Made by a program: the position numbers and the translations under genes | Source of the DNA: Acidimicrobiales bacterium | Lineage (GTDB): Bacteria; Actinomycetota; Acidimicrobiia; Acidimicrobiales; SHLQ01 | Length of the DNA: 64,000 nt | Assembly (NCBI GenBank): GCA_020629375.1 | Contig: JAHDDK010000017.1 | Span: 78 to 64,077 of the forward strand | Reading direction: 5' to 3' | Shown: positions 20,705 through 60,017 of the stretch, one piece after another | Layout: every line of letters starts with the position of its first letter | Position numbering within the stretch: the stretch's first letter is position 1 | The notes under the pieces: generated by a model | Told to the model about the DNA's origin: nothing | The model's database searches: none | What the model saw: the letters and a program-made list of their open reading frames with translations, nothing else

Positions 20705-21337
20705 ATGGCATTTCTGAAGCGAGTCGACCACATCACCTACGCGTGTCGAGCAGGTTCAATCGAGAAGTGGGCCTGGTTCCACATCGAGGTCGAGGGCGGC
20801 ACGTTGATCAACCGCATCGACGATGTTCGACCCGACGATCCCAATGACTCGATGAAGATCTGGTGCATCGACTACGGCGAGTTTGGCGTTGCGCTCATCG
20901 AAGGCATCGATCGAGCCAAGGTGTCGCAGGTCTCCGCCTTCGTGGAGCGGCACGGCGATCATTCGGTCCAACACGTCGCCTTCGACACCTACGATCTCGA
21001 GAAGTTCCAGGAACATATGAAGTCGCTCGGAGGCTCACCTCGAGGCGAGACGCTTGTCCGCAACGACGGCTTCGGTGTGCTCAAGCAGATGTTCGCCCGC
21101 GGCTACGAAGAGGGCAGCGCCGACGAGACCAGCTTCCCCGAATACGTTCAGCGCCCCGGCGCGCAATCTGCCGAGGAAGTCGCCATCACCTTCGCAGAAG
21201 AAACGGGTAAGGGCTTCTACGACCAGGTCGCAGACGCCGTCGATTCGGGAGACACCGAGCCCTTCTTCGACTTCTCCCGCATGCCAACCGACTGGGTCGT
21301 TCCCGAAGCCGAGCCACTCGAGGGCTATCGCGCCTGA
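20705..21337 (+). CDS. VOC (glyoxalase/dioxygenase) superfamily protein
   Basis: VDHITYA...HGDHSVQHVAF is a metal-binding style motif. GGAGG lies upstream of the ATG. Confidence 0.55.
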   Translation: MAFLKRVDHITYACRAGSIEKWAWFHIEVEGGTLINRIDDVRPDDPNDSMKIWCIDYGEFGVALIEGIDRAKVSQVSAFVERHGDHSVQHVAFDTYDLEKFQEHMKSLGGSPRGETLVRNDGFGVLKQMFARGYEEGSADETSFPEYVQRPGAQSAEEVAITFAEETGKGFYDQVADAVDSGDTEPFFDFSRMPTDWVVPEAEPLEGYRA

Positions 21338-22764
21338 CAGAGTCCGGCTCTGGCGGACTCCGCGTCGATCCGAGCTACGTTCCATTCGCGCCAACTCGTT
21401 GTCGAATCGGTCTCGCAGAGGTGCGCCACCATGCGTTCGAAGCGCGAGTTCGGAAGCGGGCGAAGCGCGTCGAGGCGCGTCACGATCTCCGGCGTCGCGT
21501 CTTCGGACAGCCACGACAGCGCTCTCACGCTGATGACCCCGTCGACCTCTCGGGGATGTTCGAAGTTGTACTGCGCGATCCGTTGATCCGGGTTCGACAG
21601 CCCCATCGCGAAAACGAATGCCAGCCAGGCGCACAGCAGCGCCCCCGTCATCCACTCGGCGTCCGGACGAATCTCGTGAATCCGAACGAGCACGAGTCCG
21701 AGAACGATGACGAGCAGGAGTCCGAAACCGAACGACCACCATCGCAACGGAGTCTGGAAGTTCCGCTCGACGTACTCGGCGATCCGCTGAAGCGCGATCA
21801 CATCGATGGCCGCAGCCAGCGCGACCACGAAGGTGGCCAAGCGTCGAAACCGTCGTCGTTCGATAAGGCCCTCGAGTGCTACGTGTCGCCGGAGGGTCAG
21901 GATCAGCACGACGGTGAGCGCCGCCACGAAGAGTAATTGGAAGAATCCCGAGCGGACCTCCGAGCGCCACGCGTCTTCGCTCAGCGGTGCACCAAGCCGG
22001 CCGAGTCGCACGGCGACGAAGACGCCGAACAGTGCGGCGACCGCTCCGAGGACGATCGTCGATTCGATGGATCGGAGTCGACGTCTCGCCGTCGAACCTT
22101 CGGTGGAGCGGCCCAGGTGAACCAGCGCGAAGAGCCCGCCGATCGCTGCGGTAGTGGCAAAGCCGAGCGCGATTCGAGGCGCGGGTAGTCGTCCGATGTC
22201 GACGATCGCCGCGAACACCTCATCGGCGGAAGCGAGCAGGCTCCAGAAGATTGTGACGACGACGAGTGCGAGGGTCAGACCCCGAACGATCACGAATGCA
22301 CTGTCCCCCGGCATCGCCGGTTGGACCAACGTCCCGCGGACCCCGCTGGCCCCGCTGGCTGTCGGGTTCCCCCGCCAGGCACGGAGCGTGCGCCCGATCC
22401 GGTAGTCGAACAGGGCTTGGTTGGTCGAGGTCGCGCTCGACGCGAGAACCACGATGGCCACGCAGCTGGCGACGACGCACCAGGCAAGCCAGCGATTGTC
22501 GCGAACCACGAGGAAGGCGCTCAGCACGGCTCCTGCGAGAAGCACGCTGTTCAATGCACCCTGGTTCTTCTGCCCGGTATGACGGAGGGCCGCGCCGGTT
22601 GCCCCCAGCACTCCGACGATCGCCACAGCCAACCCGAGGCTCGGAACCCACGTTGCCGAAACGGCGACAACCGTGCCCACGAGGACGCTCAGCCAGCGAC
22701 TCGTCACCGAGGTGCTGGGGCCGTCTGCGGCCACTGGCGACTCGGGAGCGTCTACCGACGTCAT
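21325..22764 (-). CDS. polytopic membrane protein (DUF4153/DUF4173-like)
   Basis: 479 aa with more than 10 hydrophobic helices. It is a paralogue of the upstream gene, with a similar C-terminal soluble tail. Confidence 0.55.
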   Translation of the reverse strand: MTSVDAPESPVAADGPSTSVTSRWLSVLVGTVVAVSATWVPSLGLAVAIVGVLGATGAALRHTGQKNQGALNSVLLAGAVLSAFLVVRDNRWLAWCVVASCVAIVVLASSATSTNQALFDYRIGRTLRAWRGNPTASGASGVRGTLVQPAMPGDSAFVIVRGLTLALVVVTIFWSLLASADEVFAAIVDIGRLPAPRIALGFATTAAIGGLFALVHLGRSTEGSTARRRLRSIESTIVLGAVAALFGVFVAVRLGRLGAPLSEDAWRSEVRSGFFQLLFVAALTVVLILTLRRHVALEGLIERRRFRRLATFVVALAAAIDVIALQRIAEYVERNFQTPLRWWSFGFGLLLVIVLGLVLVRIHEIRPDAEWMTGALLCAWLAFVFAMGLSNPDQRIAQYNFEHPREVDGVISVRALSWLSEDATPEIVTRLDALRPLPNSRFERMVAHLCETDSTTSWREWNVARIDAESARAGLCQAR

Positions 22765-22767
22765 GGA

Positions 22768-24330
22768 TCAGTCGCTGCTTGACGAGGTTCGGCGCGGGGT
22801 CGGGCACAGTTCGTCGAGCTCCGACTCGGCCTGGCGGTCAGCCAGGTTCCAGCCCAGCGGGCCGTAGCGAAGCTCGTCGACCGGCTCGTCACAGAGCGCA
22901 CGAAGCATCGCTCCTCGGTGGCCGGCACTCAGGTCGACGAATGCGTCGGCGATCGCGGGTACCGCATCGTTCGACAAACGGGCGACGGTGATGGCATCGA
23001 ACTCGGCCCCCGCATTCGAGAGGTTGTACCGAGCGACCGTCGCGTCGGGATTCATGACGTTCATCGAGAATACGAAGACCGCAGCCGACACCAGGGTGAA
23101 GCCGGGAAACCACGACCGACCCTCAGCGAAGCCGGCGATTGCGACCGCGTACGCCACGATGACGACGATCACCCAGCCGACCCCGGCGATCGACCAGAGC
23201 CTCAGCGGCGTGAGGTCGAAGGATCCCACGTACAGCAGCAATCGCTGAAGAGCCACTGCCGCTATCGCGAGGGTCAGACCCAAGACGATGATGGCAATCG
23301 GACGGAACCGGCAGCGTTCGCCCTCGGCGAGTGGGCGACGAAGTCCTCGTACGGCGCCGACGACCGCGAGGCTGAGCGCAGCAACCCAGACCAGCTGAAA
23401 GAACCCACGTCGGGCATGCTGCGCCTGAGTGAGCCCTTCTGTTTCGAGCACGTGGTCGACGCCGCCCACCGCAACCGCGATCTGGGTGGCGACGAAGCCC
23501 GCAAAGAGGACGGCGAGGCTTCCGAGCACGATCGTGACCTCGACCGGGGCGAAGCCCGAGGGTTTGATGCGCATCTCCTGCGGAGCGGTTTCGTGGGCAG
23601 CGCGGGACAGCAAGCCGAGCAGGGCAACGGCGACGAGGGCCGACAACAGCACGTGTCCGATCATCGATGGCAGGTTGTCGAGAAGCAGCAGGCTGGCGAA
23701 CACGTCGTCGGCGGAGGCGAGAAGTGCACCAAAGACGAACACGACCGGCACCGCGACCAACAGGCCACGGAGAATCGCTGTGCCCTGCCCTCGCTGGGCT
23801 GCCGTTCGAACAAACCGTTGAACCATGTCGATGCCGTACGTCCACTCCACCACCTGCGACCCGGCGTGCGCCACGAAGGCAACAAACGGGAGATCGAAGA
23901 GTCGTCCGCGCTGGGAAAGCCCGACGGCGACGGTCCCCAGAAGCACGATCGCCATCGCCGTCGCTGCAGTCAGTGACCCGGACGATCGGATCGCCAGCCA
24001 TGGCGCAAGGGCAAGCGCGGCGAGCACAAGGACTTTCGACGATCCGGTTTTCAGTCGCCCCGATCCCCACAACCCGCCGGCAAAGACCGCGACACCCAGT
24101 GTGCTGGCCAAGCCGATGACCCCGACCCGAAGGCCGATGTTCAGCAGGAACCCCGCAACGACGACAGCGAGCAGCTCTTTCCAGCCAAGGTCCGGCTTCT
24201 CCGATCGAGCGAATGGGTTAGGTGGGGGCGTAGGCTTCAGGGAGGTGTTCGGCCCCGCAACGCGAACATGGGTTGCGTCGGCCGCCGGGTGTTCCGGGAC
24301 CGGCGGTGGTGGTTGATCAGAGATCGACAT
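22768..24330 (-). CDS. polytopic membrane protein (DUF4153/DUF4173-like), tandem paralogue
   Basis: Start taken at MSISDQ. It has the same helix pattern and C-terminal tail (ARYNLSN...L..LC) as 21325..22764. Confidence 0.55.
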   Translation of the reverse strand: MSISDQPPPPVPEHPAADATHVRVAGPNTSLKPTPPPNPFARSEKPDLGWKELLAVVVAGFLLNIGLRVGVIGLASTLGVAVFAGGLWGSGRLKTGSSKVLVLAALALAPWLAIRSSGSLTAATAMAIVLLGTVAVGLSQRGRLFDLPFVAFVAHAGSQVVEWTYGIDMVQRFVRTAAQRGQGTAILRGLLVAVPVVFVFGALLASADDVFASLLLLDNLPSMIGHVLLSALVAVALLGLLSRAAHETAPQEMRIKPSGFAPVEVTIVLGSLAVLFAGFVATQIAVAVGGVDHVLETEGLTQAQHARRGFFQLVWVAALSLAVVGAVRGLRRPLAEGERCRFRPIAIIVLGLTLAIAAVALQRLLLYVGSFDLTPLRLWSIAGVGWVIVVIVAYAVAIAGFAEGRSWFPGFTLVSAAVFVFSMNVMNPDATVARYNLSNAGAEFDAITVARLSNDAVPAIADAFVDLSAGHRGAMLRALCDEPVDELRYGPLGWNLADRQAESELDELCPTPRRTSSSSD

Positions 24331-24494
24331 GGGTGACCGCACCTCTTCGGCTTGGATGATGAGTTCAGAACGCCGTCCGGTGGGGGAACGCCCACCAACC
24401 ACCACTCAACGTAGTGAAAGGGAGGGTAAAGGTGTGGTGAAAGTGCGATTGCGGTCTTGTGACGGACGTGCGATCCGCAGGAGATCTGGTCGAC

Positions 24495-41955: not shown

Positions 41956-43539
41956 TCAGGCGTCCGTGCTCGGTGCGAGCCGGCCAATAATGCCCTCGTC
42001 GGGGTCCAGGGTCAGCGAATCCATCGGCGCATCTCCGCTGCGATACAAGACGGTGCAGTCGAGGTCGAGATCGATCGGCTGGTCGCTGATGTTGGCGGCG
42101 AACAACACGTCATGACGCCGAAACGCAACGACGCTTCGGTCGGGTTCGACCCACTCGAACGGCGCGTGAGCGATCTCTTCGAGTTCGGCGCGCACGGCGA
42201 TGAGTCGGCGATGTCGATGAAGCCACGACGTGGGATCCTCGCGTTGGACTTCGACGGTGTCGGCAGCCGAACGTCCGCCGAATGGCAGCCATGGAGTACC
42301 GGTCGTGAATCCAAAGCCGTCGATCGGCTCCCACGGGATTGGAGTCCGTGTGGCGTCTCTCCCGCTTGCGGCATCACCGTCTTCGCCGATGGGATCGAGC
42401 TTGTCCTCGGGACGCAATTCGGAACTCTCGAGGCCAAGTTCTTCGCCTTGATACAAGAACGGCATGCCGGGAAGTCCCATCAGCAAGACGCAGAACGCGA
42501 GGGCTCGCCGTCGGCCCAGGTCGCCCCGACCAAATCGAGTGACGGATCGGTGTTCGTCGTGGCTGTTCTGGGCCCAACCAAGCCCGGCCGAGATCGAGCG
42601 GATGGGGGTCTCGAACGTCGACTTGATAGACGTGGCAGACCAGTCCATGTGCATCGCGCCGAACCAGAATCCGACGTGGAGCGCGTCGCCGCCCGACACG
42701 AGACGATCGAGCTTGTCGAGACGGTGAAGGTCATAGGTTTCGCCGAGCAGGAGCGCGTCGTACTCAGCGGCGATGCGATTCCACCGTCGGTAGATCTCGA
42801 CCGTTTCGGGTTGGAGAATGTCGTGTTCGTGCTCGAAGGCGTTCCATTGATCCCATCGGAACATCGAGTCATCACACGGTCCGATCTGCGGGTTTGACCG
42901 GAGCTGCTCGTCCTTGACCAGTGCTTGGGCAACGTCGATCCGAAACCCGTCGACGCCTCGGTCGAGCCAGAACCGCAGCACATCGTCGAATGCATCGACG
43001 ACGGCCGGATTGCGCCAGTTGAGGTCGGGCTGAGACGGAAGGAAGAGGTGCAGGTAGTACTGGCCCGACGCCTCGTCGAGGGTCCATGTCGTGCCGCCGA
43101 AGTATCCGACCCAGTTGTTGGGCGGGCCGCCGTCGGGCGCGGGGGCCGCCCAGATGTAGTGGTCTCGGAACGGATCATCGGGTCCGGACTTCGCGCGGAC
43201 GAACCATTCGTGTTGTTCGCTCGTGTGGTTTGGGACCAGGTCGATGATCACCTTCATGCCGAGCTCGTGGGCACGGGCGACGCACGAATCGACCGCATCG
43301 AGATCTCCGAAGAGTGGGTGAACGGCGGTGTAGTCCGCCACGTCGTAGCCCCAGTCGTCCATCGGTGAGGGGTAGAACGGCGTGATCCAGACGACGTCGA
43401 TGCCGAGCCAGGCAAGGTGATCGAGGCGCGACGTCAGGCCACGGAAGTCACCGACGCCATCACCGTCGCCGTCGCAGAACGACCGAATGTAAATCTCGTA
43501 GCCGACGGCGTGATCCCACCATCGGGACATGTGTGTCAT
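41956..43539 (-). CDS. GH13 alpha-glucosidase / oligo-1,6-glucosidase
   Basis: DGDGDGVGDFRG, DLVPNHTS and GFRIDV motifs. Start at MTHMS or MSRWW (43539 or 43530). Confidence 0.9.
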   Translation of the reverse strand: MTHMSRWWDHAVGYEIYIRSFCDGDGDGVGDFRGLTSRLDHLAWLGIDVVWITPFYPSPMDDWGYDVADYTAVHPLFGDLDAVDSCVARAHELGMKVIIDLVPNHTSEQHEWFVRAKSGPDDPFRDHYIWAAPAPDGGPPNNWVGYFGGTTWTLDEASGQYYLHLFLPSQPDLNWRNPAVVDAFDDVLRFWLDRGVDGFRIDVAQALVKDEQLRSNPQIGPCDDSMFRWDQWNAFEHEHDILQPETVEIYRRWNRIAAEYDALLLGETYDLHRLDKLDRLVSGGDALHVGFWFGAMHMDWSATSIKSTFETPIRSISAGLGWAQNSHDEHRSVTRFGRGDLGRRRALAFCVLLMGLPGMPFLYQGEELGLESSELRPEDKLDPIGEDGDAASGRDATRTPIPWEPIDGFGFTTGTPWLPFGGRSAADTVEVQREDPTSWLHRHRRLIAVRAELEEIAHAPFEWVEPDRSVVAFRRHDVLFAANISDQPIDLDLDCTVLYRSGDAPMDSLTLDPDEGIIGRLAPSTDA

Positions 43540-43579
43540 GGACGACCTAACGCAGAGAACAGATCTGGGCCGACTTGAA

Positions 43580-43593
43580 TGTAACCGTTTGCA
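43580..43593. promoter_or_regulatory. LacI/GalR-type operator candidate
   Basis: TGTAACCGTTTGCA differs at one position from the 40639 site. It lies about 41 bp upstream of the alpha-glucosidase start. Confidence 0.45.
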
Positions 43594-43768
43594 GAGTAGT
43601 GCGGCCAACAGTCACACCGACTGTAGATACGTCATCTCCTGGAGCGATCAAGCGCAGCGGGCTCGTGCCGATAGGCGATATGGCGTGGGTTGGTCACAAA
43701 CCCACCGACCAGACCACTCGCGCGGCGTAGTGTTTGAGCCGCACCCAAGATCACGAGGACCACACAAG

Positions 43769-44656
43769 ATGAATCCCGACCAGCTGCGCAAGATCACCGA
43801 CGACATCGGCTTCATCGCCGCTCTCGATCAGAGCGGCGGCAGCACACCCAAAGCCCTCAAGGCCTACGGCGTCGAGGAAGATGAGTACGAGGGCGAAGAC
43901 GAGATGTTCGCCAAAGTGCACGAAATGCGCACCCGTATCATCACGAGCCCGTCGTTCACCGGCGAGCGCGTCATGGGCGCCATCCTCTTCGAGAACACGA
44001 TGAACCGCCAGATTGACGGCATGGACACCGGCGACTTCCTGTGGAACGAGAAGAACGTCGTGCCGTTCATCAAGGTCGACAAAGGCCTCGCCGACGAAGC
44101 CGACGGCGCCCAGGTGATGAAGCCGATGCCCGACCTCGACGATCTGCTGTCTCGTTCGGTCGAGAAGAACATGTTCGGCACGAAGATGCGCTCGGTCATC
44201 AAGCTCGCGAACGAAGTCGGCGTCGGCGCGGTCGTCGATCAGCAGTTCGAGATCGGCCACCAGATCCTCGGACATGGCCTCGTGCCGATCATCGAGCCCG
44301 AGGTCGACATCAACTCTCCCGAGAAAGCCACGGCCGAAGGCCTGCTCCGAGACGCCATCGCCGCCCAGCTCGACACCATCGGCGACGACCAGGTCGTCAT
44401 GCTCAAGCTGACGCTCCCCGAAGAGGCCAACTTCTACGCCGACCTCATCGCCCACCCGAAGGTGGCCAAAGTTGTCGCGCTCTCCGGCGGTTTTGCCCGT
44501 GACGAAGCCAACCGTCGCCTCTCGGAGAACAACGGCATGATCGCGAGCTTCTCGCGTGCTCTTGCCGAAGGACTCTCCGCCAAGCAGAGCGAAGACGAGT
44601 TCGACGCCACGCTCGACGCCACCGTGCAGTCGATCTACGACGCCTCGGCCACCTGA
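43769..44656 (+). CDS. class I fructose-bisphosphate aldolase
   Basis: GFIAALDQSGGSTPKAL and LVPIIEPEV motifs match the ~296-aa bacterial class I FBA. GAGGA lies upstream of the ATG. Confidence 0.85.
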   Translation: MNPDQLRKITDDIGFIAALDQSGGSTPKALKAYGVEEDEYEGEDEMFAKVHEMRTRIITSPSFTGERVMGAILFENTMNRQIDGMDTGDFLWNEKNVVPFIKVDKGLADEADGAQVMKPMPDLDDLLSRSVEKNMFGTKMRSVIKLANEVGVGAVVDQQFEIGHQILGHGLVPIIEPEVDINSPEKATAEGLLRDAIAAQLDTIGDDQVVMLKLTLPEEANFYADLIAHPKVAKVVALSGGFARDEANRRLSENNGMIASFSRALAEGLSAKQSEDEFDATLDATVQSIYDASAT

Positions 44657-44662
44657 TCCCCC

Positions 44663-45631
44663 GTGCTCGACGACGCCGCCCTCGCCCCCGATCCGGATCG
44701 GAGGGCGGCGGTCGAGCGCGCCCTCACGCAGATCGCCGGGCCCGGAGCCGTGCTTGTGGCATCGGATCGTCTCCTCGCGGCCGACGTCGCTCGGAGATCG
44801 TGGGCGGGCGAAGGGTTGAGCTTTGCCTCCCCGCTTGAGCGCGTCGCCAGCGCTGTCGCCACCGATACGGAAGGCATCGATCAGGAGTTCATTGCTGACC
44901 TCGAAGTCCAGGGAATGAACCGCCTCACCTATCTGGAAATTGCGGGCATCGTCGCGCGGCTCTCGACCGTCGATTGGTACGCACGGGGGATCGGCGCCGC
45001 GCCCCCACCGCTCGGCACGCCGTCGGATGAGCCGCCAACGGCAAACGTCGCCGCTGACGCAGCGATCACCGACTCGTGGGTTCCCATGACCTCCGAGGCG
45101 AGCGCACCGCGCACCCTCGACGCCCTTCCCGATGAGGGCGAGGCGCTTCGCTCCCTGCTCGAACCGACGTATATCCCGATGGCGAAGATCGGGGACTGGT
45201 CGGCGGGCGACTCGCTCACGCGACCCCAGATCGAACTCGTCGCATCTCGGACCTCGTATCTCAACGAGTGCTTCTATTGACTGCTCTCCCACGCATACTT
45301 CCTCCGTGAGAGTGGAGCGCCAGCAGGGCTCGACATCGACCTGAAAGCCATCGTCAACGGTACGCCGATCCCCGCAATCGACGGATCGGGCGAGCTGATC
45401 GGTCTCGTCGACGCGCTGGGAACCGATGCGAGCGGCGACGTCAAAGCCGCTCAGGCCGCGTTGACCGATCGCCTGGGCGACGCCGCCGCCGAGCGGGCGG
45501 CCGGCGTGGCCGCCAGCTTTCAGATGATGAACCGAATGCTCGACGCCGTCGGAGCGCCCGTGCGAACCAAACCGCACCTCGTCGACGTCGCCGTCGAGAT
45601 GGGCTTCGACCCCGCCGACCTCACCCGGTAA
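44663..45631 (+). CDS. AhpD/CMD-family (alkylhydroperoxidase-like) protein, candidate selenoprotein with in-frame TGA at 45278-45280
   Basis: The track ORF stops at ...SYLNECFY-TGA. The same frame then continues LLSHAYFLRESGAPAGLDIDLKAIVNG... for 116 codons to TAA 45629-45631. The TGA sits exactly where the second Cys of the family motif N-x-C-x-Y-C-x-x-x-H is expected. Confidence 0.55.
45281..45326 (+). other. candidate SECIS-like hairpin immediately 3' of the in-frame TGA
   Basis: CTGCT (45281-85) pairs with AGCAG (45322-26). CTCC(C)AC (45286-92) pairs with GTGGAG (45312-17). The apical region is about 19 nt. Folded by hand only. Confidence 0.35.
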
Positions 45632-45765: not shown

Positions 45766-46665
45766 CTAAGAAAAGCGCTGCTCGAGCTCGACGACCTCGG
45801 GTAGGCCGATGGTGTCGGTGAACTCTCCGAATGCCATGAGCTCATCAACGAACGCCGCCGGAGTGCCGTCGGCGCGAAGCCGACCGAGAAACTCCTGCAT
45901 CGCCCTCGTCGCGGAGAGCAGCGTCCCAATCGGCGCAATGATCATGGCGAAGCCAAGCTCGGCGATCGTGGCGTGGTCGAGCGGCGGCGTCTTGCCACCT
46001 TCGGCCCAGTTGAACAGCAACGGCACGCCCCCGAACTCCGTCGACACCCGTTCGATCTCCTCGATACCTTCGAGCGCTTCGACAAAGAGAACATCAGCGC
46101 CTGCCTCCGCACACGCGTGCGCACGTCGAATCGCCTCGTCGAGGCCATGGGGCGCCCGCGCATCGGTGCGGGCGATCAGCACGAGGTCGGGATCGGTTCG
46201 AGCGGCGGCGGCGGCGCGGACTTTGCCGACCATTTCTTCGTGCTCGACGACCTGCTTGCCCTCCATGTGCCCGCACTTCTTTGGGAGGACCTGGTCCTCC
46301 AAGTGCAATCCAGCCACGCCGGCGCGCTCGTACTCCTGCACCGTCCGAATGACGTTGATCTGATTGCCGTACCCCGTGTCCGCATCGGCAACCACGGGCA
46401 GCCGAACAGCGTCGACGATCCGACGTGCGTTGCCCACCATTTCGTGAAGGCCGAGCAAGCCGACGTCCGGCCGGCCGAGCAGGCCAGCGGATGTTCCGAA
46501 CCCGGTCATGTACACCGCATCGAATCCGGCTTGCTCGATCAGGCGGGCGCCGAGCGCGTCGTAGCAGCCGGGCAAGACCATGGGATTGCGTTCCGACATC
46601 GCCGATTGAAGTGCCGCACGAAGGGCGGGTCGCGGATTGGTCCGTGGAGCGAGGAGGTCGGCCAT
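45766..46665 (-). CDS. isocitrate lyase/PEP mutase superfamily protein (methylisocitrate lyase / phosphorylmutase-like)
   Basis: PGCYDALGARL...ADADTGYG...LEDQV..KKCGH motifs. Start taken at MADLL (46665). Confidence 0.85.
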   Translation of the reverse strand: MADLLAPRTNPRPALRAALQSAMSERNPMVLPGCYDALGARLIEQAGFDAVYMTGFGTSAGLLGRPDVGLLGLHEMVGNARRIVDAVRLPVVADADTGYGNQINVIRTVQEYERAGVAGLHLEDQVLPKKCGHMEGKQVVEHEEMVGKVRAAAAARTDPDLVLIARTDARAPHGLDEAIRRAHACAEAGADVLFVEALEGIEEIERVSTEFGGVPLLFNWAEGGKTPPLDHATIAELGFAMIIAPIGTLLSATRAMQEFLGRLRADGTPAAFVDELMAFGEFTDTIGLPEVVELEQRFS

Positions 46666-46786
46666 GGCAGCTCTTTCCCAGAGGAGTCCGCAGCCGGCCG
46701 AGAACCGCTCTCGCCCCAACCGAATCGTCGGGGTCCGGCGCTCGTCAGACAGTACCCACTTGGCCAGGACGTCTACGGTTCGAGCC

Positions 46787-47422
46787 ATGAGCCAGTCCCC
46801 CACCGACGATTATCGAGCGGCCGGGTTCAACCGTCGGCTCGGTCCAGGCGAACACATCGCCGTCCTTATCGTCGACATGTGCCGGGCGTACTTCACCGAG
46901 GGTTCGCCCCTGAACCTCGCTGACAGAGGACCGGTCGACGCGTGCAACGAGCTTGTCTCTGCAGCACGAGCCGCGCAGGTGCCAGTGCTGTGGAGCCGAG
47001 TGGAGTTCGGCGCCGATCCACTTGAGGCGCCTGGCCGAGTGTTCTACCGAAAAGTGGGCGCCCTCTCCTCGTTCGACGCCGGCAATCCACTCGGCGATTG
47101 GCTCGATGGGCTCGAGCCAATCGAGGACGAAGTCGTGGTGACGAAGACCGGCGCGTCCGCGTTCTTCGGAACGTCGCTCATCGACGAACTCCGGCGCCTC
47201 GACATCGACACGTTGCTGATCGGCGGCGTGTCGACCAGCGGCTGCGTCCGAGCAACGGCGATCGACGCGTGCCAACACGACATCGTGGCGATCGTCGTCG
47301 ACGACGCCTGCGGCGACCGCACGGAAGACATTCATCGTTCGAACCTGTTCGACCTCGATGCGAAGTACGCCGACGTCGAACCGCTTGGTCGAGCTCTCGA
47401 GATCCTGTCGGAAGCCGTCTAG
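46787..47422 (+). CDS. isochorismatase-family cysteine hydrolase (RutB-like amidohydrolase)
   Basis: VLIVDM, VVVTKTGASAFFGT and LLIGGVSTSGCVRAT (catalytic Cys) motifs. Start at ATG 46787. Confidence 0.8.
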   Translation: MSQSPTDDYRAAGFNRRLGPGEHIAVLIVDMCRAYFTEGSPLNLADRGPVDACNELVSAARAAQVPVLWSRVEFGADPLEAPGRVFYRKVGALSSFDAGNPLGDWLDGLEPIEDEVVVTKTGASAFFGTSLIDELRRLDIDTLLIGGVSTSGCVRATAIDACQHDIVAIVVDDACGDRTEDIHRSNLFDLDAKYADVEPLGRALEILSEAV

Positions 47423-47530
47423 AGAGCGTCAGTTGCGGACAGTTCACGTTGTCGTGACGTGTTACGCCCGTCACAGGTAGCCCCGCGCGTGATAGGCCCA
47501 GGGGACGCACCCTCCCGAAAGGCACTTCCC

Positions 47531-48580
47531 ATGGACGTCGGCATCTTCATTCCCATCGGCAACAACGGCTGGATGATGTCGAAGACGGCACCGCAGTACA
47601 TGCCGAGCTTCGAACTCAACAAGGAGACGGCGATTGAAGCCGAGAAGCAGGGCTTCGAGTTCTTGCTCTCGATGGTCAAACTCCGCGGGTTCGGCGGGGA
47701 CACCGAGTTCTGGGATCACAACCTCGAGTCGTTCACCCTGATGGCTGGCCTTGCGGCAGCGACGAACGACATTGGCTTGTACGCGTCGGTGGCGCTCCCG
47801 ACGATGGAACCGGCGATGGTCGCTCGAATGGCGTCGACGATCGACGACATCAGCGATGGACGTTTTGGCATCAACATCGTGTCGGGCTGGAATCAGATCG
47901 AGTACAGCCAGATGGGCGTCTGGCCCGGCGACTGGTACTTCGAGAAGCGCTACGACTACGCGACCGAATACGTGACGATCATGCAAGACCTGTGGTCGAC
48001 CGGTGCGAGCGACTTCAAAGGTGAGTACTTCCAGATGGACGACTGTCGTCTCTCACCGCCTCCCCGGGACAACAAGGTTCCGCTGGTCTGTGCCGGGCAG
48101 TCCGACCGGGGCATGGAGTTCTGCGCGACGTACGGCGACTACCAGTTCATCATCGGCACGAGCGACCTCGACGTTGTCCGAGCTGATGCCGCACGCCTGA
48201 TGGAAGCCGCCGAGAAGACTGGCCGCGACGTTGGGGTCTACGTGCTCTTCCAGATGACGATGGGCGAGACCGACGAAGAAGCCGAGGCCAAGTGGCAGTC
48301 GTACAAGGACGGCGCCGACCTGGAGGCGATCAAGTTCTTGATTGGCGCGGCCGAGATGGACACGGCTGGCGCCACGGCCGACAAGATCGCCGAGATGCAA
48401 CAGGCGTTCAACCTCAACATCGGCGCCATCGTCGGCAGCCACGCCACAATCGCTGCACGCCTCGACGAGGTCGCAGAGATCCCGGGCGTCAAGGGAACGA
48501 TGTGTGTTTTCGATGACTACCCCGTCGCCACGAAAGAGTTCGGCGAGAAGGTCATGCCCCTCATGCAATCCCGCAAGTGA
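47531..48580 (+). CDS. rutA: pyrimidine monooxygenase RutA-like LLM flavin monooxygenase
   Basis: The sequence appears alignable along its length with my recollection of E. coli RutA. Shared blocks: IFIPIGNNGW..S..APQYMP.FELNK and SM.KLRGFGG.TEFWDHNLESFTLMAGLAA. Confidence 0.8.
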   Translation: MDVGIFIPIGNNGWMMSKTAPQYMPSFELNKETAIEAEKQGFEFLLSMVKLRGFGGDTEFWDHNLESFTLMAGLAAATNDIGLYASVALPTMEPAMVARMASTIDDISDGRFGINIVSGWNQIEYSQMGVWPGDWYFEKRYDYATEYVTIMQDLWSTGASDFKGEYFQMDDCRLSPPPRDNKVPLVCAGQSDRGMEFCATYGDYQFIIGTSDLDVVRADAARLMEAAEKTGRDVGVYVLFQMTMGETDEEAEAKWQSYKDGADLEAIKFLIGAAEMDTAGATADKIAEMQQAFNLNIGAIVGSHATIAARLDEVAEIPGVKGTMCVFDDYPVATKEFGEKVMPLMQSRK

Positions 48581-54983: not shown

Positions 54984-57900
54984 TCACGGATCACCGGGTT
55001 CGAGAACTGGGAACGCCGGACAGGTCGACGGAACAGGCTCCTCAGCGACTCCGAACTGCACCCACTCAGCCGCTGTGAGGTTGCGGCCCGCTGCATCGCA
55101 CGCCATCTCGATCCATCGAGACGGGTCGAGGTCCCAGACGAGCCCGTACCCATCCGTGAACGATGTCGCATATCGACCGTCCGAGCTCACGTTTGTCGCG
55201 ACCTCCGGATCGCCCGGTAGTGGTTGTCCGATTGCCATCCCGGTGGCGACATCGAAGACTCGCGGGCGACCATCCAGGTTGGCCACGAGTCGAGACCCGT
55301 CCGGCGTCACGGCGAGCGGGGCGTAGCTCTGAAGGCCGGAGGTCGCTCCGACGAATTCGCGACCCCGAGGTCGGAAGGACGACCCATCACGCTCGGAGAT
55401 CACGCCGTCATCTCCGGCCGTGAACAGCGCATCGCCCGTCGGCGAGAAGCGCACGGCGGTCACTTGACCGTTGCCTTCAGCGATGAGCCGCTCGAAACGA
55501 AGCGTCTTCGCATCGAACGCGGCGGCGCGCCCGTCGGACGCTGCAATGACAACCACCTCGCCACCCGGGTCCAAGGCGAATCCAACGACGTTGTCGGATC
55601 CGTTTGTGGCGAAGTAGTCCGACTCGGCGAGCACCTCACCCGACGCCACGTCAATGAGTTCCACAAGAGGTGGCCCAGGTTGTCCGTAGCCCACGAAGAA
55701 CCGATTGTCCGAAGAATCGAAGAGCCCAGACCACGCACTCTGGCGGTTGACGGTGATCTCGGTCATGGACAGGTCGTCGGCGTCGAGGAGATGGACGCCT
55801 CGAGCGTCGGCGAACGCAGCGGGCCCGAAGACGTCCAGCAGCAACCGTCCAGCCGCGCCGAACTCCACACGCGAGACGAGTGGCTCCAACTCCACAAGTA
55901 CGGCGTTCTGACGCTGACCTTCCATCGAAGTTGCGCGGGTTCCATCGTTCGAGACGAGAAACTCGAAGGGGTCAGACAGCGGAACGGCCCGCGCCACGAG
56001 TCGACGACCATCGAGCGAGAAGACTCGTAATCGCGAGCCGGCGACGGCGAGGGTCTCCCCTGTGGGCGAGATCGAAACGGGCACGCCACCCGGACTCAGC
56101 TCGTCTCCTAGATCGACCTCGCGGTCGGCGGAACTGTCGACCTCCATCGTCCGAAAAACACCCGTCGGCAACCCCAACACGAACATCCCGTCGTGGAAGT
56201 CGAGCCCAAAGCCTGTCCGTCCGCCCGACGTGATCTGCTGCGAGATGCGCAGCTCGCCCACTTGTCTCATGGACCCTGCGTCAACCTCGACGAGGTAGCT
56301 CTCCGTCGCAGCGACGATCGTGTCGTCGGACACCCACCGGATCGTGGTCGGGCGACCCGGTCCTCGACCTTGTGACTCGATCAGCCGCGGCCGGGTGACC
56401 GAAACGTCGCCGATTCTGTCGAGATCGAGATCGTGTACCCGGATCGAAACTCCGCCAGCCGTTGCGACTCGTGTGCCGGTCTGATCGAAGGCAATATCGG
56501 CAACGCCGCCAGGGAAGTCGAGAGGCTCATGCGCCGAGGCGCCAACATCGACGTCCATGGCTTCGAAGTCCGTTTCGGGATGGGCGAGAGCCGTACCAAT
56601 GAGTCTTGGCTGCCCCTGGACGGACCACAGTTCGAGTGTTCCGCGCTCCGTGCCGGCGGCGAGCAACGTTCCGTCGGGCGAGAAGGCGAGGGCGCCGACC
56701 GGCCCTCCGGTGTCGAGGTGCGCGACCACAGTGAGTCTGCGGTCGAAGAGTTGGACCCCGGAGGCAAGGTCGGCGACGGCGATGAGGGCCGAGTTCGACG
56801 ACGACGCGAGGGCACCGCGACTCTGGACCTCCGCGACATGAGCTGTTCCGGCTTCAAGATCGACGAGTTCGACCGTTCCTCGACTCAGCGCTACGACCGC
56901 AGAGGCCCCCACCCAGTCGACGTCGAGAACATCACCTTCTGATCCGTGTGCGCCGAGAAAGGAGCCGAGCCCGACGAGAACCTCGTGGAGCGCACCGAGC
57001 GACTCAGGACCCGGATCTCGTCGGTGCGCTTCAACGGCGAGGAGGAGTGCCGTTTCTCGGTTCGTCTCGACAAGGCGCGCCGCCGACGAGCTCATGCGAC
57101 GTGCATCGGCCACCGTTCGTTCGGCTTCGGCCACGAGTCGTTGATCTCGCTCCCGCCCTTGCGCTCCGATTGCAAAGATCGCAGCTGCGAGGGCGGTCAC
57201 GAGCAGCACAGCTGCAACCCTCAGCGCGTGGCCGAGCCGACGGTTCCGCCCTTCGATGAGCTCGGCGACCGCCCGTTCGGCGGCACGTTCGGCCTCAGCA
57301 GCGTGCGTGCTCGCTTCGATCAGGTCGTGTTCGTCGGCCGAAAGAGTTGCACCCCGTTCGACCAGTTCGACGGCTGATGCGAGACGTGCGCCTCGGATGA
57401 GCTCGGCATCGTCTCGTCCTGCGTCGACCCATGCGTGGGTTCGCTCTGCGATGACTCGCTCCAGACGCAAGTGCTCGAGATCCTCGTCGATCCATTGGCG
57501 AAGTCGTGGCCAACCGTCGAAGAGCGCTTCATGCGCGATCTCGATCGTGGGAGCTCGGGTGAACGGGTCGGTGTCGGTGGTCAACAACCGAGCGTCGATG
57601 AAGGCCTCGATGACCTCCTTCATGCTGGCTGGAACATCTGCGCGTTGCGTCCGACGACGGGTGAGCCGGTCCTCGTATCCCAAGTGCACTAGTCGCCGCA
57701 TGAATCGGCGGAGGCCCGACCGTTCGGCATCGTCGAGATCGTCATGGAGCGCCTCGGCACGTGCTGCCAAAGACGCCATCAACCCGCCGATGCGCTCATA
57801 GGCGTCGAGGGTCAGGACATACGTGCCACTTCGGTCCGCCTCCCGCCAGAGCTCGGACAGACAGAACTGGAGAAGTGGGAGGGAGGCCGTCGCACCGCTG

Positions 57901-60017
57901 GTATCAGCCAGCAACGTGGACACGAGCGCAGCATCGACTCGCCCCCCAGCCAGACGTGCGGGTTGGGTGATAGCGGCTTCGAGGTCGCCCGGCTCCATCG
58001 CCCGAATCGGAACAATGCCGTCCTGGCAGAGCGACCCAAGGCGCGGCCAACGAAGCGCTTCGTCGAAGAAGTCCGATCGCAACGTGGCGACGACTCGTAC
58101 ATCGACCTCGTTGCTGTGGACCATTCGATGGAGTTCGTCGACGAAGGTCTGTGCGTCGACGGGGTGGGCGAGCGTGAAGAGTTCTTCGAGCTGGTCCACG
58201 AGCAGGTTCACGGTCCCGCCGTCGGACGACATTGCCGCGATCCGTTGGACAAGAGGCCCGTGATTCTCGACCGTTTCGATCGATCGAAGTGCGGTCTCGA
58301 GTGCGGCCACCGGATCGGATCCGGGTTCCATCCGGACGATCCAGCCCTCGTCGGATGCGCGTTGCCGTCGGATCGCCGGGAGTACGCCGGCTCGGGCGAT
58401 CGACGATTTCCCCGCACCTGATGGCCCGACGATCACGATGAAGGGGGCTCCGCGACTGAGGCGGGCAACCACCGTGTCGACAGCGAGGCTTCGTCCGAAG
58501 AAGTACCGGGAATCGTGCTCATCGAAGGCTGCGAGGCCGACGTACGGAGTGGTCGACGAGGCCCCTGTCGAGCTGGGTGTCCGCGGGCCGAGCACCGACT
58601 CGATCGTTCGGTGTACATCGACGAGCGTCAACGTGCCCGCGTGAGCCGCCTCGAGCGCCTCTGCCAGACGCCCGTCGATTTCCGGCGTCTGAGGAACGGC
58701 CCCAAGCAGTTGTTTGCCGAGCCGCGCAAACGCACGTGCATCATCCGTCTCGTTGACCGCACGTCCGAGAAGCTGTTGGACACCAATGCCGACGAGCGAC
58801 ACTCGTCCATCGTGGACCCGCACCGAAGATGCGTCGAGAGCGCCATGGAGCTGGCCGTCGGCTGCCGCCGCGAGAAGCACGGATGCGATCGCAGAGAGCA
58901 CCTCGAGAACGTCTCGGCCTTCGCGTCCCTCGATCCACTCCGCGCAGAGTGTCCCCCTGGATCCGCCGTGCACGACATAGATGGCTCCGTGCTCTCGCCA
59001 GACGTCGAGCAGGGGCACGTGCGCAGAGTGGGTGAAGCGCATGAGTCCTCGCGACGCGTGTGCGAGTGATCGAACGACGACGGGGTCGTCAGCGATCGGT
59101 GGCCTCACAATGGTCATCTCGCCGGTTGCATCGATGTGGTCAGCGATGCACGTCCATCGTTCGATCGGGCCCCGCCGTTCGATCAACTCCATGGGCCGAT
59201 AGCAGCGCGTTGGCGGAGTCGTCGTCGCCGTCGACAGCGCCTCGCCCTCCCTCAACGCTCGACCGAATTCCTCGAACTCGGCCGATGGTTCCAGCCCGGT
59301 CCGCTCGATGAGAAGCGACCGGTAGCGATCCAATGCCCGAACCGCATCCGCCGGACCGTGTACTCGCCGCCGAGCAACGAGCTCGAGCCGTCGAAACTCC
59401 TCGGACAGAGGCTCGGCTTCCAGCAGCAGACCAACGCGGGACAGTGCATCTTCAGGGCGGCCGCTTTCGATGCACGTACGCACCTCGAGCACCTGGTGTG
59501 CCGTTCGAATCCCGCGCAACCGGGTCACCTCGACACGGCACCAGGCCCGATCGCCCAAGTCACCGAAGGGCGCGCCGCGCCAGAGCGTCTCGGCGTCTTG
59601 TGACAACGCCGAACTTCGTCGGATGTCTCCCTGATCGAGTGCTTCACGAGCTCGAGAGACCAGAGCGTCGTATCGGGATGCGTCGAACTGCGAGTCGCTG
59701 ATCGTGAGTGTCAGCCCGACGGGTGACGAGACAATCCGATCACCGCCGATCGCCTTTCGGAGCTTGGACACGTAGGTCTGGAGGGTGCGTTCGGCGCGAT
59801 CGGGCGGCACACCGTCCCAAACCGCGTCCATGAGCACCGCGAGCGAGACGGGACGACCGGCATGAGCGAGGAGGCAGCCGAGGAGCACCCGCTGCCGAGG
59901 TCCTCCAATGGCCACCGCCTCCCCGCCTGACTGCACGGCGATGCCGCCGAGAACCCGGAACATCATCCCGGAGCCCACCACCGTTCGAGTCTCACCGGTT
60001 CCACCACCCTCGGTCAA
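54984..60017 (-). CDS. SARP (wHTH+BTAD) / degenerate kinase-like / STAND P-loop NTPase / TM helix / beta-propeller (WD40-like) multidomain regulator
   Basis: MMFRVLGG...LLGCLLAH...YVSKLRKAIG and the WRG..FGDL BTAD region mark the SARP module. Walker A GPSGAGKSS is at DNA 58402-58428. A hydrophobic helix LRVAAVLLVTALAAAIFAIGA is at about 57160-57235. About 720 aa of repeats (FSPDG, SPTG) follow, ending ...ACDAAGRNLTAAEW. The start is TTG 60017 (TTGA overlap with the upstream stop) or ATG 59966. Confidence 0.8.
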   Translation of the reverse strand: MTEGGGTGETRTVVGSGMMFRVLGGIAVQSGGEAVAIGGPRQRVLLGCLLAHAGRPVSLAVLMDAVWDGVPPDRAERTLQTYVSKLRKAIGGDRIVSSPVGLTLTISDSQFDASRYDALVSRAREALDQGDIRRSSALSQDAETLWRGAPFGDLGDRAWCRVEVTRLRGIRTAHQVLEVRTCIESGRPEDALSRVGLLLEAEPLSEEFRRLELVARRRVHGPADAVRALDRYRSLLIERTGLEPSAEFEEFGRALREGEALSTATTTPPTRCYRPMELIERRGPIERWTCIADHIDATGEMTIVRPPIADDPVVVRSLAHASRGLMRFTHSAHVPLLDVWREHGAIYVVHGGSRGTLCAEWIEGREGRDVLEVLSAIASVLLAAAADGQLHGALDASSVRVHDGRVSLVGIGVQQLLGRAVNETDDARAFARLGKQLLGAVPQTPEIDGRLAEALEAAHAGTLTLVDVHRTIESVLGPRTPSSTGASSTTPYVGLAAFDEHDSRYFFGRSLAVDTVVARLSRGAPFIVIVGPSGAGKSSIARAGVLPAIRRQRASDEGWIVRMEPGSDPVAALETALRSIETVENHGPLVQRIAAMSSDGGTVNLLVDQLEELFTLAHPVDAQTFVDELHRMVHSNEVDVRVVATLRSDFFDEALRWPRLGSLCQDGIVPIRAMEPGDLEAAITQPARLAGGRVDAALVSTLLADTSGATASLPLLQFCLSELWREADRSGTYVLTLDAYERIGGLMASLAARAEALHDDLDDAERSGLRRFMRRLVHLGYEDRLTRRRTQRADVPASMKEVIEAFIDARLLTTDTDPFTRAPTIEIAHEALFDGWPRLRQWIDEDLEHLRLERVIAERTHAWVDAGRDDAELIRGARLASAVELVERGATLSADEHDLIEASTHAAEAERAAERAVAELIEGRNRRLGHALRVAAVLLVTALAAAIFAIGAQGRERDQRLVAEAERTVADARRMSSSAARLVETNRETALLLAVEAHRRDPGPESLGALHEVLVGLGSFLGAHGSEGDVLDVDWVGASAVVALSRGTVELVDLEAGTAHVAEVQSRGALASSSNSALIAVADLASGVQLFDRRLTVVAHLDTGGPVGALAFSPDGTLLAAGTERGTLELWSVQGQPRLIGTALAHPETDFEAMDVDVGASAHEPLDFPGGVADIAFDQTGTRVATAGGVSIRVHDLDLDRIGDVSVTRPRLIESQGRGPGRPTTIRWVSDDTIVAATESYLVEVDAGSMRQVGELRISQQITSGGRTGFGLDFHDGMFVLGLPTGVFRTMEVDSSADREVDLGDELSPGGVPVSISPTGETLAVAGSRLRVFSLDGRRLVARAVPLSDPFEFLVSNDGTRATSMEGQRQNAVLVELEPLVSRVEFGAAGRLLLDVFGPAAFADARGVHLLDADDLSMTEITVNRQSAWSGLFDSSDNRFFVGYGQPGPPLVELIDVASGEVLAESDYFATNGSDNVVGFALDPGGEVVVIAASDGRAAAFDAKTLRFERLIAEGNGQVTAVRFSPTGDALFTAGDDGVISERDGSSFRPRGREFVGATSGLQSYAPLAVTPDGSRLVANLDGRPRVFDVATGMAIGQPLPGDPEVATNVSSDGRYATSFTDGYGLVWDLDPSRWIEMACDAAGRNLTAAEWVQFGVAEEPVPSTCPAFPVLEPGDP

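Follow-up and report, generated by a model that had tools for sequence, protein, structure and literature searches.

The gene considered here occupies positions 44663-45631 (+) of the window, by which we mean the whole 64-kb stretch of DNA that was analysed. Its open reading frame starts at a GTG codon (44663) and ends with the residues ...ASRTSYLNECFY, followed by a TGA at 45278-45280; past this codon, the same frame continues through 116 sense codons (LLSHAYFLRESG...DPADLTR) up to a TAA at 45629-45631. An earlier account of this DNA, made from the letters alone and referred to below as the preliminary description, had placed both stops at these coordinates, and our reading of the window sequence confirms them. 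The features of the locus, all of which are on the forward strand, are as follows.

44663-45631 (+): complete gene of a putative selenoprotein, with a GTG start, the candidate selenocysteine (Sec) codon as residue 206, a TAA stop and a product of 322 aa

44663-45112 (+): helical N-terminal domain peculiar to the family (about aa 1-150), which matches nothing in Pfam and is covered by an AF2 model of aa 1-205

45179-45577 (+): AhpD/CMD-like catalytic core spanning the candidate Sec codon (about aa 173-305), from matches of profile A2 to PDB proteins over profile positions 150/189 to 303-304, Pfam CMD and TIGR01926

45233-45292 (+): active-site segment E191-x11-C203-F-Y205-U206-L-L-S-H210, with the AhpD-type proton-relay residues

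45278-45280 (+): UGA probably read as Sec (U206), replacing the second Cys of C-x-x-C, from TGA conservation in homologues and the Cys aligned to it in PDB proteins

45298-45317 (+): probable bacterial SECIS hairpin, CUUCCUC [CGUGA] GAG(U)GGAG, with 7 bp, a single bulged U and, at 45305-45309, a loop of 5 nt

The two sides of the TGA have a GC3 of 0.78 (before) and 0.81 (after), and thus both look coding, as had been suspected from the high third-position GC downstream; the stretch past the TGA also contains 5 and 1 stops in its two other frames. Past the TGA, 60 codons go by before the frame offers any start codon, a TTG at 45461; a GTG follows near 45506. The preliminary description, according to which no in-frame start with coding potential appears until about 45504, thus comes close to the position of the GTG but leaves out the earlier TTG. 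At the other end of the gene, the N-terminus MLDDAALAPDP aligns with the N-termini of homologues. As anticipated for standard gene callers, the protein collection holds the window gene solely as a 205-aa truncation (P0001). The same sequence with the same TGA was recovered in two independent sequencing runs, and TGA is the stop codon of 13 of the 17 confidently identified genes in the window, which indicates that the codon has not been globally reassigned.

The 322-aa product, with Cys substituted for U, reaches 186.3 bits with the NCBIfam model NF041238 ('AhpD_rel_CFYUT', alkylhydroperoxidase-related (seleno)protein, an equivalog model with a curated cutoff of 175). This HMM search of the readthrough product, which the preliminary description had proposed as a check, aligned residues 62-303 with profile positions 74-338 of 357 and so covered both sides of the TGA. 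Since the score lies just 11 bits over the cutoff, the protein represents a divergent branch, apparently from Acidimicrobiia. Pfam CMD (PF02627) matches the joined product at aa 180-219 with 22.3 bits, just under the gathering score of 23, and each half searched separately gave no Pfam family match; TIGR01926 matches aa 137-300 with 37 bits (cutoff 81.8), and TIGR00778 reaches 22 bits against 27.8 bits with the single sequence. The similarity is clear with profile A2, built from seven readthrough homologues, which found the PDB entries 6k40 (E 1.5e-12), 2oyo (1.5e-10) and 2pfx (2.9e-10), and also 2prr. The N-x-C-x-Y-C-x-x-S-H of these proteins aligns with N-E-C-F-Y-U-L-L-S-H, and a Cys is aligned to the TGA codon in all four. 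The AhpD/CMD motif with Sec at the second Cys, as first proposed from the letters, is thus matched in residues and has the spacing of known AhpD proteins.

The family itself has been catalogued before. It is the family that the Sargasso Sea survey of selenoproteins entered as 'hypothetical protein 1' in 2005, from four Sec sequences in which the CxxU motif is conserved and a SECIS was predicted (Zhang, Fomenko & Gladyshev, 2005; PMC1088965). PMC13188914 likewise lists it with the CxxU selenoproteins, and CxxU selenoproteins of the AhpD-like type rank with the most abundant ones in marine data (PMC2398784). The statement in the preliminary description that AhpD-like proteins are among the families with Sec-containing members is borne out by both the NF041238 model and the Sargasso Sea entry.

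Conservation of the TGA was examined in a scan of species-representative genomes, which yielded 528 relatives, the best 80 of which were tabulated for the Sec codon. The site is TGA in 77 of these 80, TGC in one (L039, codon at 1015) and TCG in two (L081 and L088). The 80 relatives are mostly Acidimicrobiia/Acidimicrobiales metagenome-assembled genomes, with a few from Pseudomonadales, Kiloniellales, Acidobacteria and Caldilineaceae. In a collection of 5.8 billion proteins, 42 homologues (28-55% identity, 183-240 aa) were found in the truncated form; all 21 of the 42 that were read in sequence end in ...N-[E/D]-C-F-Y, and at all eight loci with DNA the stop is TGA, with 115-158 sense codons after it. 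In 87 of 87 homologous loci, the TGA has 95 or more open codons behind it, and the motifs U-x-x-[SAG]-H, L-R-x-S and F-Q-M-M-N-R are conserved past it. Relative to the window gene, substitutions per site at codon positions 1/2/3 amount to 0.45/0.44/0.57 downstream of the TGA and 0.44/0.39/0.60 upstream; the third position is in excess, and the values of the two halves are similar.

The C-terminal 116 aa were also compared with 1.84 billion cluster representatives, giving 107 matches. About 90 of these are post-TGA fragments of 54-160 aa, many of them with a spurious start placed at the Met of 'MLRxS'; nine are full-length and carry Cys (four: P0052, P0083, P0132 and P0153), Ser (three), Gly (one) or Val (one) at the position in question. 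The conserved TGA and the Cys forms together establish that Sec/Cys pairs exist in this family, with the TGA form predominant. Homologues were expected to bear Cys or Sec opposite the TGA and to cover both halves, and this was found, with TGA in 77 of the 80 tabulated relatives and Cys in L039 and the four full-length Cys forms. A minority has replaced Sec by Ser, Gly or Val and not by Cys (the TCG codons of L081 at 3104 and L088 at 3582; P0048, P0070, P0118, P0085 and P0092). P0085 additionally lacks the first Cys, implying that the redox function has been lost in some lineages.

Downstream of the TGA, a short hairpin at 45298-45317 recurs across the family. If the U of UGA is numbered 1, the family hairpin has a 5-nt loop at positions 28-32 (CGUGM or AGUUG) closed by UGCUC/GAGCR, and the homologues tested have the same fold at the same position. 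Among 83 sequences, the closing 3 bp are paired in 95-100% and the inner five pairs in 81-100%; in the loop, G29 is invariant and U30 is conserved in more than 90%. The stem core UGCUC/GAGCR is almost invariant and overlaps the conserved peptide M/F-L-R-A/E-S. Synonymous codon choice points to a constraint at the nucleotide level: Leu at the eighth codon after the TGA is CTC in 80 of 81 cases (background 43%), Arg at the ninth is CGT in 60 of 67 (background 12%), Ser at the ninth is AGT in 15 of 15 (background 6%) and Ser at the eleventh is AGY in 76 of 76 (background 25%). Pairing also depends on the register, with 68% of cells paired in the observed register versus 29-52% when the partner is slid. 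Moreover, the Arg codon is CGG, and U30 hence missing, in three of three non-Sec relatives, as against CGT in 62 of 69 Sec forms. The Ser forms L081 and L088 retain a perfect 8-bp hairpin owing to the compensatory change C27G/G33C, and likewise lack U30.

Thermodynamic measures are more modest. The window hairpin folds with -5.3 kcal/mol (z -1.0), a stability equalled by 35 of 200 shuffles, and the hairpins of homologues range from -4 to -13.7 kcal/mol. In comparison with synonymous recodings, the family mean z is -0.96, as opposed to -0.21 and -0.17 in two control regions; for the window itself, the hairpin core arises in 1.4% of synonymous recodings, and the hairpin is no more stable than 65% of them. 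RNAalifold returned no consensus structure from the 83 sequences, and the near-constancy of the stem bases leaves little true covariation. A longer fold, of 81 nt around the TGA, did not surpass shuffled sequences (z 0.09); it is the short hairpin alone, and not the 81-nt fold, that is meaningful. No SECIS model was matched in Rfam, whether the whole window was scanned at the gathering threshold or the surroundings of the TGA at permissive settings; the coverage of bacterial SECIS elements by this database is poor (Actinomarina preprint, 10.64898/2026.04.03.716425). The hairpin agrees with the published definition of such elements (PMC1088965), under which the UGA is immediately followed by a stem-loop whose small apical loop includes a G. 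The search for a SECIS after the TGA suggested in the preliminary description has accordingly led to an element with a G-U loop, weak stability and little covariation, which on these sequence patterns is probably the SECIS of this gene.

The machinery for Sec insertion was sought as well. Neither selA, selB and selD nor a tRNA-Sec was detected within the 64-kb window by motif searches for SelA/SelB/SelD, ARAGORN and Rfam. The SelA/SelB/SelD motif search of 89 homologue loci returned nothing but an EF-Tu-like P-loop in L025, and ARAGORN identified no tRNA-Sec at 86 homologue loci. Elsewhere in the class Acidimicrobiia, selA, selB, selC and selD are present in 84 of 84 complete Actinomarina genomes (order Actinomarinales; preprint 10.64898/2026.04.03.716425), and the phylum Actinobacteria has a long-standing place among those rich in selenoproteins (PMC1794560).

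Three other explanations of the in-frame TGA deserve consideration. The one that survives best, at a probability we regard as slight, is that the UGA is translated but not as Sec, i.e., that Cys or Trp is inserted by near-cognate readthrough, by a Cys-charged tRNA(Sec)-like tRNA or through lineage-wide reassignment. Natural recoding of Sec codons to Cys via unusual tRNAs is reported in some bacteria, which lends this explanation a precedent, and the 64-kb window holds no Sec machinery; against it stand the use of TGA to end 13 of 17 confident window genes, the conserved hairpin with its G-U loop, a signature of SelB-dependent decoding, the cataloguing of the family as a Sec family and the occurrence of Sec machinery in the class Acidimicrobiia. 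Very improbable is a pseudogene or a sequencing or assembly error that turned a Cys codon (TGC/TGT) into TGA and truncated the protein at 205 aa. TGA differs from TGC and TGT in one base, the sequence apparently comes from a metagenome-assembled genome and databases have just the 205-aa product; an accident of this kind, however, would not recur as the same TGA in 77 of 80 species-level homologues and two sequencing runs, leave the downstream frame of all 87 loci open and conserved or constrain the synonymous sites of the hairpin. Finally, the division into a 205-aa protein and an independent downstream protein of about 56-116 aa, which is exactly how gene callers split the locus, can practically be dismissed, as it is the joined product and neither half that matches Pfam, the AhpD core and the PDB alignments cross the TGA uninterrupted, the window offers no start codon for 60 codons past the TGA, and the full-length homologues with Cys, Ser, Gly or Val at this site are undivided.

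We therefore regard it as highly probable that 44663-45631 (+) is one gene of the AhpD-related family NF041238 in which the in-frame TGA encodes Sec. This was the central proposal of the preliminary description, and the family model, the 77 TGA codons among 80 relatives and the hairpin all lend it support.

The part of the protein ahead of the AhpD-like core is specific to the family. An AF2 model of aa 1-205 (pLDDT 91, pTM 0.89) consists of seven helices and a loop at about aa 110-155, and a Foldseek search of the PDB with this model gave no match (best E 1.6). The N-terminal profile weakly matches the post-CxxC helices of 2oyo (E 0.014) and 6k40 (E 0.024) through residues of about 121-189, and a comparison of the N- and C-terminal halves by hhalign was not significant (E 0.39). 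In some relatives, such as P0038 (L009) and P0153, the N-terminal domain contains a second CxxC (CSLC and CGFC), at a place where the window protein reads '...ADVARRSWAG...', which is a hint that the domain derives from an AhpD repeat that was once active. From such sequence traces, a second AhpD-like repeat, now degenerate, is a plausible but unproven identity for the N-terminal domain.

The gene follows a class I fructose-bisphosphate aldolase gene (43529-44656, +) that ends 7 nt before the selenoprotein start. The longest open reading frame of the aldolase has about 80 extra N-terminal residues compared with the NF003784 profile, whose match begins at residue 81, and its true start is probably internal. 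Adjacency to the aldolase is confined to the closest relatives (L005, L006 and L015; three of 86 loci). Downstream, at 46637-48580 (+), lies a flavin monooxygenase of the RutA type, with 507.7 bits for TIGR03612 (cutoff 498.3), beside an isochorismatase/RutB-like hydrolase; this pair, 1-2 kb from the selenoprotein gene, looks like a partial pyrimidine-utilisation-like cluster. Across the 86 loci, no gene neighbour is conserved in the family, including the RutA-like, RutB-like and PEP-mutase neighbours, and the gene context consequently gives no hint at the substrate. A link to the peracid-producing Rut enzymes was considered and dropped because the RutA/RutB-like neighbours are not conserved. 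No ahpC gene is adjacent to the selenoprotein gene.

Other parts of the window were surveyed for comparable cases. A second selenoprotein was rejected, as the four same-frame pairs of open reading frames joined by a single TGA turned out to be complete independent genes. For example, tandem DUF4153 paralogues at 22768-24405 (-) and 21325-22764 (-), of 545 and 479 aa, share a frame, and the second ATG stands directly after the first TGA; as either one spans the full Pfam model, they are two genes in their own right rather than one readthrough product. The window also encodes, at 54984-60017 (-), a SARP-like STAND regulator of 1677 aa with Trans_reg_C, BTAD and nSTAND1 NTPase domains and WD40 repeats. 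Five forward-strand open reading frames at 56376-59069, all in one frame and with a GC3 of 0.72-0.83, have no family match and were discarded as antisense shadows of the 54984-60017 (-) gene.

In M. tuberculosis AhpD, the second Cys attacks AhpC, and Sec in the window protein would thus sit at the nucleophilic position. The residues around it are those of the AhpD proton relay: alignment A2 shows no variation at E191, C203, Y205 or H210, and the spacing E-x11-C-x-[H/Y]-C-x3-H is identical in the window protein, PA0269 and M. tuberculosis AhpD. The relay consists of Glu36, Cys48, Tyr50, Cys51 and His55 in PA0269, and of Glu118, Cys130, His132, Cys133 and His137 in M. tuberculosis AhpD (PMC3141380). 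The following mechanism can be proposed. The UGA at 45278 would be recoded to Sec upon recruitment of SelB.GTP.Sec-tRNA(Sec) by the hairpin at 45298-45317, which lies within the F-L-R-E-S-G codons and presents G29-U30 in its 5-nt apical loop. The resulting protein, to judge from its family, would act as an AhpD-type thiol/selenol oxidoreductase, in which U206, the second residue of the C-x-x-C pair, is the likely nucleophile and would be activated via the E191/Y205/H210 relay. Its selenolate may attack an oxidised substrate or partner, and a C203-U206 selenenylsulfide would then form and be resolved by a cellular reductant. The probable job of the enzyme would be the reduction of a peroxide or of a peroxiredoxin-type partner; by analogy with the family, we moderately favour such a peroxidase-type redox role.

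The window gene is an unannotated, somewhat divergent (CFYUL) member of a known selenoprotein family, and its annotation should be one 322-aa selenoprotein in place of a 205-aa hypothetical protein and an orphan fragment; the same split error affects roughly 90% of the entries of this family in public protein collections. The gene further implies that an apparently Acidimicrobiia genome uses Sec, and this genome should hence hold selA, selB, selC and selD and need selenium. Its near-invariant hairpin offers a clean, family-specific SECIS example for a class whose SelB is reported to be divergent. The family and its use of Sec were described in 2005, and the locus opens no new biological question. 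A bolder view, which we offer as a speculative and rather unlikely one, is that Acidimicrobiia harbour a family almost obligately dependent on Sec (TGA in about 90-96% of lineages), with an unusually invariant SECIS (UGCUC-CGUGM-GAGCR) locked to the conserved peptide M/F-L-R-A/E-S and a confidently modelled N-terminal domain of no structural relative; the protein could then be a distinct enzyme and not an AhpC partner, and the SECIS could set the recognition rule of a divergent Acidimicrobiia SelB.

Several known systems can be set beside this locus. The SECIS of E. coli fdhF has loop bases G23-U24 and a bulged U17. Like that element, the window hairpin is embedded in the coding sequence shortly past the UGA and has a small apical G-U loop, and the bulged U in its 3' arm is a further likeness; unlike it, the window hairpin has a 5-nt loop with G-U at +29/+30 and not +23/+24, i.e., six nucleotides farther from the UGA. 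Among Cys-containing AhpD structures (M. tuberculosis AhpD, 1knc/1gu9; Pseudomonas aeruginosa PA0269, 2o4d; and 6k40, 2oyo, 2pfx and 2prr), the five relay positions are shared with the window protein, as is probably the helix-turn-helix motif of the active site, whereas the latter has a predicted Sec instead of the second Cys, an N-terminal domain without a structural match and no adjacent ahpC. The AhpD-like selenoproteins of COG2128/TIGR01926 ('AhpD-like 1' of the GOS and Sargasso data; PMC2398784, PMC1088965) resemble it in superfamily, CxxU motif and marine/metagenomic distribution, but are single-domain proteins of about 180 aa, in contrast to the additional N-terminal domain of about 150 aa found here. 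Shared with the NF041238 family are the CxxU motif in which Sec comes second, the length of about 320-360 aa, the N-terminal extension and a SECIS-like hairpin directly after the UGA. In departure from the 'CFYUT' of the family name, the window protein has Leu and not Thr after Sec (CFYUL), and the residue at this position among 82 TGA-bearing relatives is Leu in 52, Val in 19, Thr in nine and Met in two.
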